Shown here: positions 36,139 to 41,866 of the stretch, piece after piece
How the letters are laid out: every line of letters begins with the position of its first letter
How positions within the stretch are numbered: the first letter of the stretch is position 1
DNA from: an uncultured Planctomycetales bacterium
Lineage (GTDB): Bacteria > Omnitrophota > Gorgyraeia > Gygaellales > Profunditerraquicolaceae
Direction of reading: 5' to 3'
DNA: 64,000 nt
Assembly: GCA_964542785.1 (NCBI GenBank)
Contig: CAZIUK010000001.1
Coordinates: 69,115 to 133,114 of the forward strand
Notes under the pieces: generated by a model
Seen by the model: the letters and a program-made list of their open reading frames with translations, nothing else
What the model was told of the DNA's origin: nothing
Databases searched by the model: none
Made by a program: the position numbers and the translations under genes

Positions 36139-36511
36139 AGAAGAATTAAACCTTGGTAAAAACGGTGAGGACTTAGCGGTAGGATTTATTAAGGGTAAGG
36201 GGTATAAAATAATAGCGCGAAGGTATAAAGTTAAGTTTGGGGAGATAGATATAGTAGCATTAGATAAAGATACTTTATGTTTTATAGAAGTAAAATCCCG
36301 TAGGAGCAGTAGGTTTGGTTTAGCAAAAGAAGCTGTCTCTTCTTTAAAGCAGAGGAGGATATCCAAGGTAGCTCTAAATTTTCTTAAAGAAAATTCTCTG
36401 TTAAAGGAAAAGGCGAGGTTTGATGTAGTTTCTGTAGATTTTTCTTCTGCTCCTTTTAAGATAAATTTAATTAAAGACGCCTTTGAGCTTAGTAGCGGTT
36501 TTAATTACTAA
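36131..36511 (+). CDS. yraN: YraN/UPF0102-family endonuclease
   Basis: GEIDIVALD....FIEVKSR motif. 126 aa. Conserved rnhB-yraN pairing. Confidence 0.8.
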   Translation: MAKEELNLGKNGEDLAVGFIKGKGYKIIARRYKVKFGEIDIVALDKDTLCFIEVKSRRSSRFGLAKEAVSSLKQRRISKVALNFLKENSLLKEKARFDVVSVDFSSAPFKINLIKDAFELSSGFNY

Positions 36512-36515
36512 AAAT

Positions 36516-37076
36516 ATGTATAAAGATAAAACCCTTGAGGATTATATTAAAGAGCTTTCATCTAGGCTCCCTGTTCCGGGGGGAGGGTCTGCCGCCGCAT
36601 TATGCGCTGCTATGGCTGCAGCCTTAATGAGTATGGTGATAAATTTTACCTTAGGTAATCCTAAGTTTGTAAAGCATGAGAGCAAGTTAAAAGAGGCTTT
36701 AAGCCAAAGCGAGCGGTTTAGAAAAGAATTTATACGTTTAGTTGATTTAGACGCGGTTGCCTATAAATCTAAAAATATAAGGGATGCGGTGAAAGTGCCT
36801 TTTATGGTTGCTAGGTTCTGTTTTGAAGGGATAAAGTTGGCTTCTTCGCTTACAAAGAAGAGTAACCCTAAATTAATAAGCGATCTTGCTATTGCGGCAG
36901 CTCTTTTTGAAGCAGGGTTCTTCTCTTCCGTTTTTAATATTAAGATTAATTTAAAGAGTTTAGATGATAAGGTGTTTTCTCGTGCTATTAATTCTGAGAT
37001 TAGTAAAAAATCAGCAGTAGTTAGAAAAATAAGGCTTAAGATGGAGGGGGATTTTGGCAACATTATTAGAGGGTAG
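36516..37076 (+). CDS. formiminotransferase-cyclodeaminase C-domain-like protein, probably methenyl-THF cyclohydrolase (FchA-like)
   Basis: PVPGGGSAAALCAAMAAALMSMV motif of the FTCD_C / cyclodeaminase-cyclohydrolase family. The track ORF begins at a TTG (36483) overlapping yraN, so the ATG at 36516 is preferred. Overlaps folD. Confidence 0.65.
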   Translation: MYKDKTLEDYIKELSSRLPVPGGGSAAALCAAMAAALMSMVINFTLGNPKFVKHESKLKEALSQSERFRKEFIRLVDLDAVAYKSKNIRDAVKVPFMVARFCFEGIKLASSLTKKSNPKLISDLAIAAALFEAGFFSSVFNIKINLKSLDDKVFSRAINSEISKKSAVVRKIRLKMEGDFGNIIRG

Positions 37077-37923
37077 GTTAATCGCAGAGAGGATAAAAGA
37101 AGATTTAAGAGGGCGTATCTTTTCCTTAAAAGTAAAGCCTGTTTTAGCGAGTATTATTGTCGGAGAAAATTTAAGCTCGCAAAGCTATCTTAACGCCCAG
37201 TCTAAACTTGCCCGGGAGTTAGGGATTGAATACCAACCTTATAATTTGTCTCTTTCTACTACCGAGAGAGGCCTCTTGGATTTTATAGGCGAATTAAATT
37301 TAAATAAATCTATAAACGGAATTATCTTGCAAAGCCCGCTGCCCGAAGATATTAATTATAAAAAGGCAGTGGCTTCTATTGATTTGGTTAAGGATGTTGA
37401 GGGTATGCATCCTGATAATTTAGGTAAAATTATGCTCGGGGAAAAGAGTGTTCTTCCATGCACGCCTGCTGCAGTTATGGAATTAATTGCAGGAAGCAAT
37501 ATAGATTTATACGGTAAAGAGGTAGTTATCGTTGGGCATAGCCGGATAATAGGCAGGCCATTAGCGCTTTTATTGTTACAAAAGATGGCTACTGTTGCAG
37601 TATGCCATATAGCCACAAGCGAATCCGGAAGGCTTAAAGAGCATGTTAGTAGGGCAGAGGTATTAGTCTCTTCCGCGGGTATCCCTAATTTAATTAAAGG
37701 GGATTGGGTTAAAGAGGGCTCTGTAGTAATAGATGTGGGGATTAATCGGGTAAAAGATAGAACCGTAGGAGACGTGGAATTTGATAGCGCAGAAAAAAGA
37801 GCTTCTTTTATTACGCCGGTTCCCGGGGGCGTTGGGCCTTTAACCGTTACTATGCTTATGCGTAATTTAGTTGAGGCAACAATTATACAAGAACGTTCTA
37901 GGGAAGAGAAGCGGGGAATATAA
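37054..37923 (+). CDS. folD: bifunctional 5,10-methylene-THF dehydrogenase / 5,10-methenyl-THF cyclohydrolase
   Basis: IIVGENLSSQSY, PCTPAAVMEL, and GHSRIIGRPLALLL Rossmann motifs. TTG start. 289 aa. Confidence 0.9.
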   Translation: MATLLEGRLIAERIKEDLRGRIFSLKVKPVLASIIVGENLSSQSYLNAQSKLARELGIEYQPYNLSLSTTERGLLDFIGELNLNKSINGIILQSPLPEDINYKKAVASIDLVKDVEGMHPDNLGKIMLGEKSVLPCTPAAVMELIAGSNIDLYGKEVVIVGHSRIIGRPLALLLLQKMATVAVCHIATSESGRLKEHVSRAEVLVSSAGIPNLIKGDWVKEGSVVIDVGINRVKDRTVGDVEFDSAEKRASFITPVPGGVGPLTVTMLMRNLVEATIIQERSREEKRGI

Positions 37924-38793
37924 ATGAGTTTTAGAGAAAAATTACATTCAGGAAAGTTTATAGTAACCTCTGAGGTTGGTCCACCTAAGGGTATAGAGAC
38001 TAAGCAGATAATTGAGGAGGCTGAGCTTATCCGTGACAGGGTTGATGCCTTTAATGTAACTGACCTGCAGAGTTCTGTTTTGCGGTTAGGTTCATTAGCA
38101 GTTTCGCGCATCTTAAGAGAAAAGGGGCTTGAGCCGATATATCAATTAACCTGTCGTGACCGTAATCGCTTGGCATTGCAGTCAGACCTTTTGTCCGCGG
38201 CAGCTTTAGGCATAGAAAATATTTTGATATTGACCGGAGATTATACTACAGCAGGAGACCACCCAGAAGCTAAGCCGGTGTTTGATTTAGACTCAGTACA
38301 ACTGCTTCAGGCGGCAAGCATGCTTGAAAACGGGTCTGATTTAAAAGGCAATAGGTTAACCGGAAAACATCCGGATTTTTGTTTAGGAGCTGTAGTTAAT
38401 CCGGGGGCAGACCCTTTAGAGCCAGAGATTATAAAGATGGAAAAAAAGATATCTGCAGGGGCAGAATTCTTTCAGACTCAGGCGGTTTATGACCTTAAGG
38501 TTTTTGAAGATTTTTTAAAGAAGGCAAGGCATCTTAATACTAAGATTTTAGCAGGAATAGTTATTTTAAAGTCAGCAGCCATGGCTAAGTATATGAACGA
38601 AAATGTAGCCGGGGTTGTGGTCCCTGAAATTTTAATAAAAGAGATGGAGGGGGCTACGGATAAAAGAGCTAAGGCTATAGAGATAGCCTCAAGCCTTATA
38701 AAAAAGCTAAGGCCGATGTGCGACGGAGTGCATATTATGCCTATCGGCTTAGGGAGACTATTGCCTGAAATCTTAGACGCTTGCGGGTTATGA
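37924..38793 (+). CDS. metF: 5,10-methylenetetrahydrofolate reductase (MetF family)
   Basis: MTHFR TIM-barrel pattern (FIVTSEVGPPKG, ...CRDRNRLALQSDLLSAAALGIENILILTGD...). 289 aa. Immediately follows folD with no gap. Confidence 0.8.
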   Translation: MSFREKLHSGKFIVTSEVGPPKGIETKQIIEEAELIRDRVDAFNVTDLQSSVLRLGSLAVSRILREKGLEPIYQLTCRDRNRLALQSDLLSAAALGIENILILTGDYTTAGDHPEAKPVFDLDSVQLLQAASMLENGSDLKGNRLTGKHPDFCLGAVVNPGADPLEPEIIKMEKKISAGAEFFQTQAVYDLKVFEDFLKKARHLNTKILAGIVILKSAAMAKYMNENVAGVVVPEILIKEMEGATDKRAKAIEIASSLIKKLRPMCDGVHIMPIGLGRLLPEILDACGL

Positions 38794-39674
38794 TGGGTAA
38801 TGTAGTTATTATAGGAGCTTCAGCATCGGGACATAATATCGCCTTAGGGTTAAAGGATAAGCATAGGGATTGTAATGTAGCTTTACTTAGCCAAGAAGAT
38901 TATCCTTCCTATGACCATTTAAAGATACCAGATTTAATAAGCGGAATAGTAAAAGAAAAAGATATATTTTTATGCGACGAGGATTTTTATCAGAAAGCAG
39001 GAATTAATTTTTTAAAGAATAAAAAAGTATCCGGTATAAATACGGAAAAGTCTTTAGTATATTTTAAGGATAGAGGGAGTATTAATTATGACATTTTAGT
39101 TATTGCTTCTGGTAGAAGCCCTGTTATCCCGGATATACCCGGGGCTAGAAAAGTAGGCGCTTATCGTTTATATACCTTAGATGATACTAAAGAGTTTCTT
39201 AAGCGTTTTATAGCACATCCGGTATGTATAGTTGGCTTAAATAGCCTGGCCTTAAAAGTTGCAGAAGCGATAATGGATAGGTACGCAGTAGAGGTTAAAA
39301 TTTTAAGTTCTCTTACGCTTGCTTATTCAGATTTGCCTGGAAAGATAGAGGTTATCTGCGATTCTTTAGTTGAGGTTATTGGCGAAGGAGAGGTGCAGGC
39401 AATAAAGCTTAAGAGCGGTAAAGCCTTAGGGGTATGCGCAGTTTTATTTATGGATAATTATAAATCAAATATTGATTTTTTAAAGAATACAGAGGTATTG
39501 GTTAAGGATGATTTTATAGTAGTTGATAAAAATATGGCTACTAATTACGATAATATCTTTGCCTGCGGAAGCGTTGTAGGCAAGAAGAGCGTATCTTTAA
39601 GCTTGAACTTGGTGGATAGTATAATTAGTAGGTTAGGAAGAGAAGATGCTAGTAGAGTCGTTACAAGCTTCTGA
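38781..39674 (+). CDS. pyridine-nucleotide-disulfide-oxidoreductase-like flavoprotein homologue, short, with degenerate dinucleotide-binding motifs
   Basis: Overall Nox/CoA-disulfide-reductase-like pattern ending in the FAD motif NIFACGSV. Both Gly-rich loops are non-canonical (VVIIGASASGHN and CIVGLNSLALKVA). There is no C-terminal dimerisation domain. Overlaps metF by 13 nt and the ACS-like gene by 29 nt. Confidence 0.55.
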   Translation: MRVMMGNVVIIGASASGHNIALGLKDKHRDCNVALLSQEDYPSYDHLKIPDLISGIVKEKDIFLCDEDFYQKAGINFLKNKKVSGINTEKSLVYFKDRGSINYDILVIASGRSPVIPDIPGARKVGAYRLYTLDDTKEFLKRFIAHPVCIVGLNSLALKVAEAIMDRYAVEVKILSSLTLAYSDLPGKIEVICDSLVEVIGEGEVQAIKLKSGKALGVCAVLFMDNYKSNIDFLKNTEVLVKDDFIVVDKNMATNYDNIFACGSVVGKKSVSLSLNLVDSIISRLGREDASRVVTSF

Positions 39675-41799
39675 AACAAATTTAAGCAATGCTTTAAACT
39701 TAGTTCGTCAAGCCTTAAAGAGTTCAATAGATAGGTTTGGTTTAGCTAAAAAAGTAAGCCCCCCCGGGACAGATTATTTCCTCCCTTTAATCTACGCTTT
39801 CTTAAAAATTAAAGTTGAGAGTTTAGGCGATTTAAGGGTTATTTTAGAGAAGATAGATAACCAGAGCCATTCTTCTTATCCGCAGGATCATTTAAATGAG
39901 GCGGCTTTATTCCTCTTATGTCAGGAGGTATTGGCTTTTTTAGAAGAATTGAATAAGGGTTTTTCTTTAAGGGGAACGGGTTTCATACCGGATATTACTT
40001 TACGTAATTTGGCTATCAGAATTATAGATGGGCGCATATCCGGAGTAGGGGTTATCTTTGGGGAAGTTAAGAGGAAGGATTTAGTTTTAGATATTATACG
40101 GGAATTATATTCAAAAGGTATTTTATCTTTGATTGTCGGAAGCATAAGCAGAAAAGATTTATTTTGCCGGTTTAAAAAAAATAATTTAAAGGAGAATTTT
40201 GAAAATCTCGTCTTTTTTTTAGGCGAGGATTTTTATTCTGTAATACATGCTTTTAATTTTATTATAAGAATTCCGTGGATTTACGGCAATCTTTCTCCGT
40301 GGGAATTAAGCAGGGTAAAGGATTATATACGCAAGCATATTCCGTTGTTTGCCCTCTTTCTGGGCGAGGGCAAAGAGCCTGATTTAGGGCTATTATCGGC
40401 TTGTACGGTATTTGATTTACCGCTGATAAGCGATTCAGCTTTAAGTAACCAAGAAAGATTAGGGCCATATTTGCCTCCTACTATTTTAATCCAACCGGAT
40501 TATAAAAAAATGCCTCTTCAATGTATGCAGTTTAGTTCCTTGAAGGCAAAAGGACTGTCTTTAGATTTTCCTCTTCCTTATTCTGACCTTTTTGAAGGTG
40601 AGAGAGTGGGGGAAGATGATTTGGGTTTTAAGTTTGGGGGAGCAGAAGGGGCTTCTTTTGAGCTTTTAACCTCTTGTAAGGAGAGTGAATTAGAGGATGG
40701 CGTTATTGAATTATACGGCCCTGATATCGATAAAGATTTACTAGGGAGGAAGGATTTGTCTTTGGCTTTGATTGTGGATGTCTATGGAAATAAGATAGAA
40801 AAGGATTTTGAGCCTGTGCTGGAGCGTCAGATACATAGATTTATCAACTATGCTTTTGGCTTAGAGCATCAGGGGCAGAGGGATATGAATTCTTTTAGAA
40901 TAAGCTATAAGGCCTTCTTAAAAGGGTTTAGGTTAAGGCACTTAGGTTTGATTGTATATTCTATGCTTCATAAGGAGTATAAAGGCATCATAGAGAAAGC
41001 CAGGGTAAGGCTTTATACTCGGAAAGAGGATGTCCGGGATAAACTTACCATGGCAAGAAGGGTTTTTTCTGAAAGGGATGAGCGTTTAAACGGACTCTTA
41101 GATGAAGAGGTGGATAATTATTACTCCTGTTCTATTTGTCAATCTGTCTCTCCTAATCATATTTGTATTATATCCCCACAGCGTCCGGGGATGTGCGGAG
41201 CATACTCTTGGTTAGATGCTAAAGTATCGTCTGAGGTTGTTCCTTATGGTTGGAATAACCCCATTCCTAAGGAAAGGGCCCTAAATAGTTCTTTGGGGCA
41301 ATGGGAGGGTGTTAATAAGTTTATTGCGGACAAAACAAATAGCATTATAAAAGAAGCAAGCCTTTACTCTATTACGCATACTCCTTTGTCAACGTCAGGA
41401 TTATTTGAATGTGTTCTTGCGGTTCTTCCGGAAACAAACGGGGTGATTGCAGTAGATAGGAATTATACTGGGATGACTCCTCTGGGGATGGATTTTTCTA
41501 CCCTTTCTGATTTAGCTAAAAGCATTCCTCCTAACCCAGGGTTTATGGGTATATCGAGAAAATATATATTAAGCGGTAAATTTATTTTAGCAGAAGGAGG
41601 GTTAAGGCGTTTGGTGTGGGTATCTAAGGAACTAAAGCTATTGCTTGGAAAGAGCTTAAGAAAAATAGCTTATGACATAGGCGAGCCTACCCTATTAGAA
41701 AAGATTGCTGACGAAGATATCGCCTCTACCCTTAAACCCCTATTAGATTTTCTTAGGAAGGTTAAACACCCGGCTCTTTATATGAGCCTTTTATTATAA
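39646..41799 (+). CDS. acetyl-CoA synthase (AcsB/CdhC) homologue that keeps the [4Fe-4S] Cys quartet but lacks the Ni-binding Cys-Gly-Cys motif
   Basis: 717 aa. C-terminal third carries ACS blocks (VLERQIHRFINYAFGLEHQGQRD, YSCSICQSVSPNHICIISPQRPGMCGAYSWLDAK, GMTPLGMDFSTLSDL, PGFMGISRKYILSGKFILAEGGLRRLVWVSKELK, KIADEDIAST...HPALYM). Cys495/498/507/517 have C-x2-C-x8-C-x9-C spacing. At residues 584-586, 67 residues after the fourth Cys, the sequence is S-G-L (nt 41395..41403) where canonical ACS has C-G-C. Confidence 0.7.
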   Translation: MLVESLQASETNLSNALNLVRQALKSSIDRFGLAKKVSPPGTDYFLPLIYAFLKIKVESLGDLRVILEKIDNQSHSSYPQDHLNEAALFLLCQEVLAFLEELNKGFSLRGTGFIPDITLRNLAIRIIDGRISGVGVIFGEVKRKDLVLDIIRELYSKGILSLIVGSISRKDLFCRFKKNNLKENFENLVFFLGEDFYSVIHAFNFIIRIPWIYGNLSPWELSRVKDYIRKHIPLFALFLGEGKEPDLGLLSACTVFDLPLISDSALSNQERLGPYLPPTILIQPDYKKMPLQCMQFSSLKAKGLSLDFPLPYSDLFEGERVGEDDLGFKFGGAEGASFELLTSCKESELEDGVIELYGPDIDKDLLGRKDLSLALIVDVYGNKIEKDFEPVLERQIHRFINYAFGLEHQGQRDMNSFRISYKAFLKGFRLRHLGLIVYSMLHKEYKGIIEKARVRLYTRKEDVRDKLTMARRVFSERDERLNGLLDEEVDNYYSCSICQSVSPNHICIISPQRPGMCGAYSWLDAKVSSEVVPYGWNNPIPKERALNSSLGQWEGVNKFIADKTNSIIKEASLYSITHTPLSTSGLFECVLAVLPETNGVIAVDRNYTGMTPLGMDFSTLSDLAKSIPPNPGFMGISRKYILSGKFILAEGGLRRLVWVSKELKLLLGKSLRKIAYDIGEPTLLEKIADEDIASTLKPLLDFLRKVKHPALYMSLLL

Positions 41800-41822: not shown

Positions 41823-41866
41823 TTGACGTATATGTTTTCTTTTATATAATAAAAGAAAACATATAC
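41823..41866 (+). promoter_or_regulatory. perfect 18-bp-stem palindrome overlapping a sigma70-like promoter (candidate operator/promoter; weak candidate terminator)
   Basis: TTGACG (41823-41828), 16 nt, TATAAT (41845-41850). Inverted repeat GTATATGTTTTCTTTTAT / ATAAAAGAAAACATATAC (41828-41845 and 41849-41866) with a 3-nt loop. No following T-run. Confidence 0.5.

Follow-up and report, generated by a model that had tools for sequence, protein, structure and literature searches.

Gene content and domain organization of acsB'

The window analysed here is a stretch of 64,000 nucleotides from an uncultured bacterium of the Omnitrophota (contig CAZIUK010000001.1, positions 69,115 to 133,114). It carries a gene, designated acsB', whose product AcsB' is an ortholog of the acetyl-CoA synthase (ACS) AcsB without the nickel site of this enzyme. 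ACS is the central enzyme of carbon fixation in the Wood-Ljungdahl pathway. The nickel-binding tripeptide Cys-Gly-Cys (CGC) is replaced by Ser-Gly-Leu (SGL) and the four cysteines of the [4Fe-4S] cubane are intact. The gene begins with an ATG codon, and a ribosome-binding site (AGGAAGAG) is found upstream at 39635-39642. The features of the gene, in window coordinates, are the following:

39646-41799, + strand: acsB', stop codon included, encoding a 717-residue ACS ortholog without nickel site (open reading frame, Pfam, Protein Data Bank matches and structural model)
39646-40545, + strand: domain A1 (residues 1-300), the most degenerate part
40546-41025, + strand: domain A2 (residues 301-460), PF03598
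41026-41796, + strand: domain A3 (residues 461-717), PF19436, the former A-cluster domain and constrained core
41128-41130, 41137-41139, 41164-41166 and 41194-41196, + strand: codons TGT, TGT, TGT and TGC of the [4Fe-4S] ligands C495, C498, C507 and C517
41146-41148, + strand: V501, in the column of the Phe that neighbours the proximal Ni (a residue found in 99% of canonical relatives)
41395-41403, + strand: S584-G585-L586 (TCA GGA TTA), aligned to the Ni-binding Cys-Gly-Cys
41410-41412, + strand: C589 of the FEC motif, a lineage-wide cysteine

Pfam detects in AcsB' the three families that compose the ACS fold, namely CODH_A_N (PF18537) on residues 22-77 (E 1e-08), CdhC (PF03598) on residues 309-463 (E 2e-45) and ACS_CODH_B_C (PF19436) on residues 474-716 (E 2e-88). 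The closest solved structures are the ACS of Carboxydothermus hydrogenoformans, Moorella thermoacetica and Clostridium autoethanogenum (E ~1e-148 over residues 23-716), and AcsB' displays about 35% full-length identity with these bacterial enzymes. The original prediction, made from the letters of the DNA, that the gene encodes an AcsB homologue is thus borne out over the whole length of the protein. In canonical ACS, the domain A1 is the domain of docking to the carbon monoxide dehydrogenase (CODH) and of the CO tunnel.

Structure prediction, proposed as a check in the original prediction, was realized with AlphaFold2 (AF2) on a 60-sequence alignment. The mean predicted local distance difference test (pLDDT) of the model is 79, most of A3 being comprised between 85 and 97. 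The model was compared with open-state ACS structures (template modelling score, TM, of 0.72), its A1 with the isolated N-terminal domain of ACS (TMt 0.84) and the C-terminal subdomain of its A3 with ACS (TMt 0.94, root-mean-square deviation 1.1-1.2 Å). It fits ACS in all three domains and predicts that all three ACS folds are kept in AcsB'.

The cubane cysteines and the lost nickel site

The four cubane cysteines of AcsB' display the spacing C-x2-C-x8-C-x9-C of the [4Fe-4S] ligands of ACS and correspond to Cys506, Cys509, Cys518 and Cys528 of Moorella. They are present in 120 of the 120 closest homologues. Both the intact cysteine quartet with ACS spacing and the replacement of CGC by SGL between conserved flanks had been read in the original prediction, and both readings stand. 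S584-G585-L586 lies 67 residues past the fourth cubane cysteine, and HMMER places the segment '...tplstSGLfecvlavlpe' of AcsB' on '...ypmtsCGCfeaimaylpe' of solved ACS, with conserved flanks, so that SGL occupies the column of Cys595-Gly596-Cys597 (Moorella numbering).

In the A-cluster (Moorella numbering), Cys509, Cys595 and Cys597 hold the proximal Ni, and the distal Ni has Cys595, Cys597 and a pair of backbone amides as ligands. Judged by this known chemistry, Ser and Leu at positions 595 and 597 would leave a protein without a Ni-Ni site and unable to synthesise or cleave acetyl-CoA; AcsB' almost certainly no longer makes acetyl-CoA. Other residues of the canonical enzyme are missing as well. 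Beside the proximal Ni, canonical ACS has a Phe (residue 512 of Moorella and 515 of C. hydrogenoformans; the role of Phe515 has been described in PMC12289521), which is a Val in AcsB' and an Ala in the sister species, and the nearly invariant hinge Gly of the helix that gates the CO tunnel (Gly148 in C. hydrogenoformans) is Ala123.

Concerning Cys589, which had been taken for a new cysteine close to the lost site, the alignment gives another picture, because this residue is invariant in all 120 closest Omnitrophota homologues, including the 114 that bear CGC. As it is ancestral in the Omnitrophota ACS lineage, Cys589 was rejected as a compensatory ligand. In comparison with the canonical relatives, no gain of Cys or His is common to the two SGL proteins. 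Together with the ancestral state of Cys589, this makes unlikely the metal site rebuilt on a shifted cysteine that had been offered as an option.

The SGL motif in other assemblies and in homologues

The support of positions 41395-41403, which the original prediction had marked for re-inspection, was sought in other assemblies. The Logan assembly of run SRR29782965 is the same as the window over 4154 of 4154 nt; this run may be the source of the metagenome-assembled genome (MAG), in which case the assembly is independent and the reads are not necessarily so. A JGI/IMG fragment encodes the same C-terminal 137 residues as AcsB', 'LSTSGLFECV' included, and a second Logan run contains the protein with one substitution. 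The protein of a sister species, 64% identical to AcsB', also reads SGL and is found on 17 contigs from several samples; a search of MAG contigs with AcsB' matched the sister contig JBASUY010000030.1. A frameshift or a recoding that would restore the cysteines was rejected, since two separate sense codons are changed and no UGA is present.

Among the 120 closest cluster representatives, the tripeptide is CGC in 114. The others are SGL in two (AcsB' and its sister), CGF in two, SSL in one and CGL in one, and all the members with an organism name are Omnitrophota. Neighbor-joining (NJ) trees, obtained from the full length and from A2+A3, group SGL, SSL and one CGF sequence in a monophyletic clade. 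In these alignments and trees, the change at the CGC site defines a clade with a graded decay, from CGC to CGF and then to SSL/SGL. The question raised earlier, whether the substitution marks a clade or an error, is thus settled by the survey in favour of a clade-defining change.

Graded degeneration beyond the tripeptide

The 114 canonical (CGC) relatives served to define a reference set of 345 positions, each with a conservation of 95% or more. AcsB' has kept 218 of these positions and changed 127. The original prediction had drawn attention to the tripeptide; its loss is confirmed, and the restriction of the degeneration to this site is not, since 127/345 conserved positions are altered. 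The conserved positions kept in each domain are:

AcsB' of the window (SGL): A1 56/125, A2 63/83, A3 99/137
SSL protein (P0003): A1 78/125, A2 63/83, A3 105/137
CGF protein (P0004): A1 97/125, A2 69/83, A3 112/137

The altered positions of AcsB' include the invariant Trp416 of A2, replaced by Ser, and the GGGVQT loop (625-630), replaced by KSIPPN.

The NCBIfam equivalog NF040764 has a cut-off of 800 bits. The CGC orthologs score 998, 994 and 891 bits, the CGF form 827 and the SGY form 810, followed by the SSL form (734), the SGL sister (709), AcsB' (673.5) and a very diverged SAC ortholog (514). AcsB' is therefore below the equivalog cut-off, and it is also under those of NF007078, NF003379 and TIGR00316. 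The name 'hypothetical protein' given by the Prokaryotic Genome Annotation Pipeline (PGAP) to the SGL sister protein, and likewise to the SGL and SSL forms, accords with the score of the sister under 800. PGAP continues to give the name 'acetyl-CoA decarbonylase/synthase' to the CGF, CGL and SGY forms. In the PGAP and JGI entries for the SGY and CGL forms (P0121, P0061 and P0004-type), the names are 'acetyl-CoA decarbonylase/synthase' or 'acetyl-CoA synthase'. The forms deficient in Ni cysteines that are named as ACS score just over the 800-bit cut-off.

The most extreme form at this locus comes from the lineage L013, on a Logan contig of SRR16108674 (L013:3826-6056), which encodes a 424-residue SSL-type AcsB' starting at A2. 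A gap of 69 nt separates pndr, the gene immediately upstream, from this protein, and the synteny is the same as in the window. A1 has thus been deleted in this sister lineage. In the SAC ortholog, the first ~167 residues have no match to the ACS profile. On these alignments, A1 would be dispensable in the Ni-less lineages.

A degenerated positional ortholog of canonical acsB

The gene order at the locus is queA-tgt-trmD-rplS-rnhB-UPF0102-fchA-folD-metF-pndr-acsB-TPR-polA-glgA-coaE-rho-rpmE-prfA-prmC-aroA. It is identical in the window, in the genome of the SGL sister (L001), in a CGF genome (L006) and in three CGC genomes (L003, L005 and L010), and acsB is found in matching synteny in SSL and SAC genomes as well. 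Because of this full synteny with CGC-type acsB loci, acsB' is the degenerated positional ortholog of the canonical Omnitrophota acsB. The label of 'paralogue' used in the original prediction has to be abandoned, as acsB' occupies the canonical position, and an origin by paralogy was rejected by the synteny.

acsB' is the last gene of the string fchA-folD-metF-pndr-acsB. The features adjacent to it are:

36483-38793, + strand: fchA-folD-metF, genes of the methyl branch, upstream in the string that ends with acsB' (Pfam FTCD_C, THF_DHG_CYH and MTHFR)
38793-39674, + strand: pndr, oxidoreductase of ~293 residues of the flavin adenine dinucleotide (FAD) type, Pyr_redox_2 (Pfam and relatives of known structure)
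41772-41788, + strand: terminator-like hairpin at the end of acsB' (consensus match only)
41823-41850, + strand: promoter-like site after acsB', 11/12 positions (consensus match only)

In the SAC lineage (L011:4541-9951, GCA_018400015.1), the string contains fhs (formyltetrahydrofolate synthetase, FTHFS) and a gene for a PF12225 protein between folD and metF, and these two genes are not in the operon of the window. Over positions 1-64000, the window has a GC content of ~39%, a GC skew comprised between +0.17 and +0.34 per 2 kb throughout and essentially every sizeable open reading frame on the + strand. This points to a single long leading-strand segment in a compact genome.

The other genes of the Wood-Ljungdahl pathway were also sought. 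No CODH, corrinoid iron-sulfur protein (CFeSP), AcsE or CooC was detected in the 64-kb window and ~3 kb of 3' flank with Pfam, hidden Markov models (HMM)/phmmer and six-frame translations, a Chloroflexota locus described below being the positive control of the AcsC, AcsD and CooC scans. None was found either in the ±10-kb loci of the CGC relatives, so that their absence near acsB' alone is uninformative. An AcsC query from the Chloroflexota locus recovered only Chloroflexota and Dehalococcoidia matches and no Omnitrophota CFeSP. A partial pathway without formate dehydrogenase and AcsA/CooS is reported for many Velamenicoccia and Gorgyraia (Seymour et al. 2023, PMC10066038).

The flavoprotein gene pndr

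The 3' end of pndr overlaps the start of acsB', its stop being 29 nt inside acsB', and pndr adjoins acsB in every Omnitrophota locus examined. The nearest relatives of solved structure are CoA-disulfide reductase (CoADR), NADH oxidase (Nox) and NirB-type FAD domains (E 1e-17 to 1e-12). Like the short NirB/CoADR/NADH-oxidase FAD proteins (3CGB, 3KLJ, 6RUZ), the pndr product has a Pyr_redox_2 fold with two dinucleotide domains. Unlike the CoADR/Nox-type proteins, it has neither the C-terminal dimerisation domain nor the active-site Cys. The second of its nucleotide motifs is degenerate, and its family appears restricted to the Omnitrophota and tied to acsB. The family comprises ~105 detectable members, all the named ones being Omnitrophota, and the lengths of their contigs agree with those of the contigs that carry AcsB.

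Three natural fusions of pndr and AcsB of ~1025 residues were found (P0033, P0089 and P0123). In many 'AcsB' entries of 840-865 residues, ~126 N-terminal residues resemble the C-terminal half of pndr. The gene is retained in every Ni-less lineage examined, the A1-deleted one included, and it is constrained between the window and the sister genome (88% identity, ratio of nonsynonymous to synonymous divergence, dN/dS, of 0.20). A protein that solely serviced the nickel site would be expected to decay alongside it, and the constraint on pndr in Ni-less lineages therefore argues against such a restricted role.

Selection and divergence from the sister genome

Seventeen neighbouring genes have 81-100% identity with the sister genome, with a synonymous divergence (dS) of 0.19-0.52 and a dN/dS of 0.01-0.25. 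AcsB' has 64% identity, with no indel and no stop in 717 codons. The values for each domain, with dN/dS according to NG86 and YN00, are:

A1 (1-300): 46% identity, dN/dS 0.27 (NG86) and 0.45 (YN00)
A2 (301-460): 62% identity, dN/dS 0.18 (NG86) and 0.27 (YN00)
A3 (461-717): 86% identity, dN/dS 0.13 (NG86) and 0.19 (YN00)

acsB' is under purifying selection and is not a pseudogene. The conservation of A3 is about that of the surrounding housekeeping genes. In canonical ACS pairs with ~85% identity in A3, the identity in A1 is 79% (minimum 66%), and the SGL pair is far outside this range. Root-to-tip lengths after midpoint rooting are uninformative here, the root falling on the long degenerate branch.

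At the nucleotide level, the identity with the sister genome is 0.90-0.94 on both flanks of acsB'. It falls sharply at the start of the gene, to 0.57-0.65 over 39.65-40.8 kb, and then rises to 0.77-0.88. The divergent 5' two-thirds of acsB' are seen against L001 and L009, without indels. Among four-fold sites at unchanged residues, 0.60 differ in codons 1-450, 0.36 in codons 451-717 and ~0.20 in the neighbouring genes; in the 5' two-thirds of acsB', synonymous divergence reaches 3-5 times the level of the neighbouring genes. As the synonymous divergence of A1-A2 exceeds the neutral divergence of the genomes, relaxed selection alone is insufficient, and pure relaxed selection was rejected as the cause of the divergence of A1. 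The hyper-divergent 5' block may reflect either a divergent allele imported through recombination or a process of local hypermutation. A1 is genuinely relaxed, though to a smaller degree than the raw identities imply, and the deletion of A1 in L013 and the N-terminus of the SAC ortholog are stronger, independent evidence for the dispensability of this domain.

Recurrence across the ACS family

Searched exhaustively with HMMER, 1.84 billion representatives yielded 813 clusters of the ACS family. The best 150 of these clusters were aligned to the A3 profile and to the A2+A3 profile, and a non-redundant set of 73 sequences was retained (at most 80% identity and at least 85% coverage of A2+A3). 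In this set, both Ni cysteines are kept in 38 sequences (CGC, or CxC with another middle residue) and at least one is lost in 35. The Ni-less motifs include SGL, SSL, SGY, SAC, SPC, TLS, CGR, CGD, CGF, CYR, IGC, GAS and GSV. Of the 140 cubane-cysteine positions in the 35 Ni-less sequences, 139 still hold a cysteine, and the A2-A3 core is conserved at 40 positions. In the NJ tree, which is crude on sequences as divergent as these, they are scattered among CGC lineages of bacterial and archaeal type, and this scatter indicates many independent losses.

The Ni-less members come from at least three phyla, represented by the Omnitrophota, a Chloroflexota MAG and a Eubacteriaceae MAG. The SGY form is present in at least six Omnitrophota MAGs, and the SAC form (L011), at 35% identity, lies in window-type synteny. 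In the Chloroflexota MAG (QMNY01000022.1, L014:1-8268), a 718-residue SSL protein is a true paralogue, in a cluster of the order ACS(CGC)-acsC-cooC-orf-acsB'(SSL)-acsD-acsC where the cooC gene encodes a CooC-like ATPase. The CdhC-type ACS of this cluster has CGC and a Ser at the position of the third cubane cysteine (THVS). The Eubacteriaceae MAG contains an IGC form as an orphan gene.

With its A2-A3 core, its four cubane cysteines and the replacement of at least one Ni-bridging cysteine, AcsB' fits the informal grouping of Ni-less proteins. No description of Ni-less ACS proteins was found in the literature searched by full text, and AcsB' apparently belongs to an undescribed, recurrent class of nickel-site-less ACS homologues. 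The finding is a variant of a known enzyme family and not a new kind of system.

Interpretation of the Ni-less protein

Starting from the observed homology with ACS, the loss of the Ni ligands, the orthology by synteny, the clade, the purifying selection and the recurrence, we consider as the best explanation that acsB' is the vertically inherited acsB of the Omnitrophota and that its product is probably an ACS devoid of catalysis, retained for its [4Fe-4S] module. The original prediction had listed a pseudoenzyme or a cubane-only protein among its options, and this option fits, both Ni cysteines being lost and the cubane intact. According to this explanation, the binuclear nickel site would have been lost from acsB in one sublineage of the Omnitrophota, and the assembly of the A-cluster and the condensation of a methyl group, CO and CoA would no longer be possible for AcsB'. 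The protein would still be made and under selection, with preservation of the A2-A3 core and its four-cysteine [4Fe-4S] cubane. A1, the domain of CODH docking and CO channelling, would have become dispensable, decaying in the lineage of the window and being deleted in the sister lineage. The most likely role of AcsB' would then be that of an iron-sulfur partner of the small overlapping flavoprotein. The two could constitute a redox pair, from FAD to [4Fe-4S], in the service of the methyl-branch operon (fchA-folD-metF-pndr-acsB'). The conversion of ACS into a cubane-only protein has been repeated across the ACS family.

The partnership with the translationally coupled and sometimes fused pndr flavoprotein is put forward as a tentative working hypothesis drawn from gene organization. 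It is also conceivable, with a similar reserve, that the Ni-less ACS homologues constitute a distinct and recurrently evolved [4Fe-4S] class, acting in a redox pair in the Omnitrophota and as a partner of corrinoid proteins in the Chloroflexota.

Several points weigh against this explanation or limit its reach. The evidence for the redox-partner role consists only of gene overlap, fusion and co-retention, and the second dinucleotide-binding motif of pndr is degenerate in all lineages, which counts against a firm assignment of its electron donor. The N-terminal two-thirds of acsB' are more diverged from the sister than neutral sites elsewhere, so that A1 may owe some of its apparent relaxation to a mosaic history with recombination and not to a rate. 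Once normalised by dS, A1 is only 2-2.4 times less constrained than A3, the value for canonical pairs being ~1.4. The search for CODH, CFeSP, AcsE and a second ACS covers only the 64 kb and ~3 kb of flank. Finally, the proportion of 35/73 comes from the 150 representatives nearest to a degenerate query and is a biased figure, not a population frequency.

The same degeneration could be read as that of a relic, an acsB that became useless after the loss of the carbonyl branch and is bound to become a pseudogene, its frame being still open by chance or by operon polarity. Residues otherwise invariant are progressively lost in all three domains, the profile scores drop along the series CGC, CGF, SSL and SGL, AcsB' diverges much faster than all 17 neighbours (64% against 81-100% identity) and a partial Wood-Ljungdahl pathway occurs in many Omnitrophota (PMC10066038). 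However, dN/dS is well under 1 in every domain, the 717 codons contain neither indel nor stop, and A3, at 86% identity, equals the neighbouring housekeeping genes in conservation. Intact reading frames persist in many independent lineages, even in the SAC form at 35% identity, the Ni-less members keep the cubane cysteines at all but one of the 140 positions, and acsB' has a good ribosome-binding site. We therefore regard a relic as unlikely. A non-catalytic partner of CFeSP, using the CFeSP- or CoA-binding surfaces kept in A2-A3 as a regulator or activator of methyl transfer while a canonical ACS is possibly encoded elsewhere in the genome, would account for the 40 conserved A2-A3 core positions and has a parallel in the Chloroflexota, where the SSL paralogue lies between CFeSP genes and adjoins a CGC CdhC-type ACS and a CooC-like ATPase. 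Against it, no CFeSP, CooC or second ACS is found in the 64-kb window or in the ±10-kb Omnitrophota loci, the Omnitrophota acsB' is an ortholog and not an extra copy, and Trp416 of A2 and the GGGVQT loop are lost; to this role we also assign a low probability.

An acetyl-CoA synthase still active with a metal site rebuilt on Cys589 or on other ligands is very improbable. Cys589 lies five residues past the former CGC, and Cys498, the equivalent of the cysteine that bridges the cubane and the Ni in canonical ACS, is retained. But Cys589 is found in all CGC relatives, the SGL proteins have no gained Cys or His in common, the distal Ni requires the thiolates of Cys595 and Cys597 and the backbone amides of the tripeptide, and the gating helix has lost its hinge Gly, just as the Phe adjoining the proximal Ni is gone. 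As for a sequencing or assembly artefact at 41395-41403, no point in its favour was found and its probability is negligible. The separate assembly and the JGI peptide agree with the window, the sister species has SGL on its 17 contigs from several samples, relatives carry SSL, CGF and SGY, and two separate codons are altered, so that at least three base changes would be necessary to restore the cysteines.

Significance and comparison with known systems

The gene acsB is a standard metagenomic marker of the Wood-Ljungdahl pathway and of acetogens, and the metabolism of the Omnitrophota has been reconstructed from such calls. Genes that are intact, conserved and annotated as ACS can be without the nickel site, and an inference of the pathway from homology alone therefore overcounts the capacity for carbon fixation; a check of the CGC column is a cheap safeguard. 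The series from CGC to CGF, SSL/SGL and the A1-deleted form, at one conserved locus, constitutes a natural dissection of the ACS scaffold that separates the nickel-dependent parts (A1, gating helix and Phe) from the independent ones (cubane and A2-A3 core). Should the cubane-only proteins prove to have their own function, one of the oldest enzyme folds would gain a new role. The ACS scaffold would then have been exapted many times for non-nickel chemistry, acsB would be an unreliable marker of acetyl-CoA synthesis, and the pair of PNDR and AcsB' would feed or drain electrons for the folate methyl branch.

AcsB' shares with the bacterial AcsB of M. thermoacetica, C. hydrogenoformans and C. autoethanogenum the domain architecture, the fold and the motif C-x2-C-x8-C-x9-C. 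It differs from them by SGL in place of CGC, by the loss of the Phe and of the hinge Gly, by a score under the equivalog cut-off and by the absence of CODH and CFeSP genes nearby (64-kb window and ~3 kb of flank). The canonical Omnitrophota AcsB (for instance P0007 and P0012; compare the partial-pathway genomes of Seymour et al. 2023) has in common with AcsB' the position, the partners fchA-folD-metF-pndr, a length of 717-726 residues and the FEC cysteine, but it has CGC and scores 994-998 bits with NF040764, against 673.5 for AcsB'.

The ACS of Dehalococcoides, which has an intact A-cluster and CFeSP genes in its neighbourhood, would act in the cleavage of acetyl-CoA. Contrary to this enzyme, AcsB' has lost the Ni site, so that acetyl-CoA cleavage is excluded. 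Dehalococcoides mccartyi has a CODH-less ACS in an incomplete Wood-Ljungdahl pathway, according to Zhuang et al. 2014 as cited in PMC9324843, and from that citation its ACS resembles acsB' in having no adjacent CODH and a link to the folate C1 metabolism. Finally, the archaeal CdhC, the A1-less ACS of the ACDS (acetyl-CoA decarbonylase/synthase) complex, is comparable with the 424-residue protein of L013 (P0278), both being composed of A2 and A3 only. CdhC has CGC and is catalytic, whereas P0278 has SSL and derives from the deletion of A1 in an ortholog of bacterial type.

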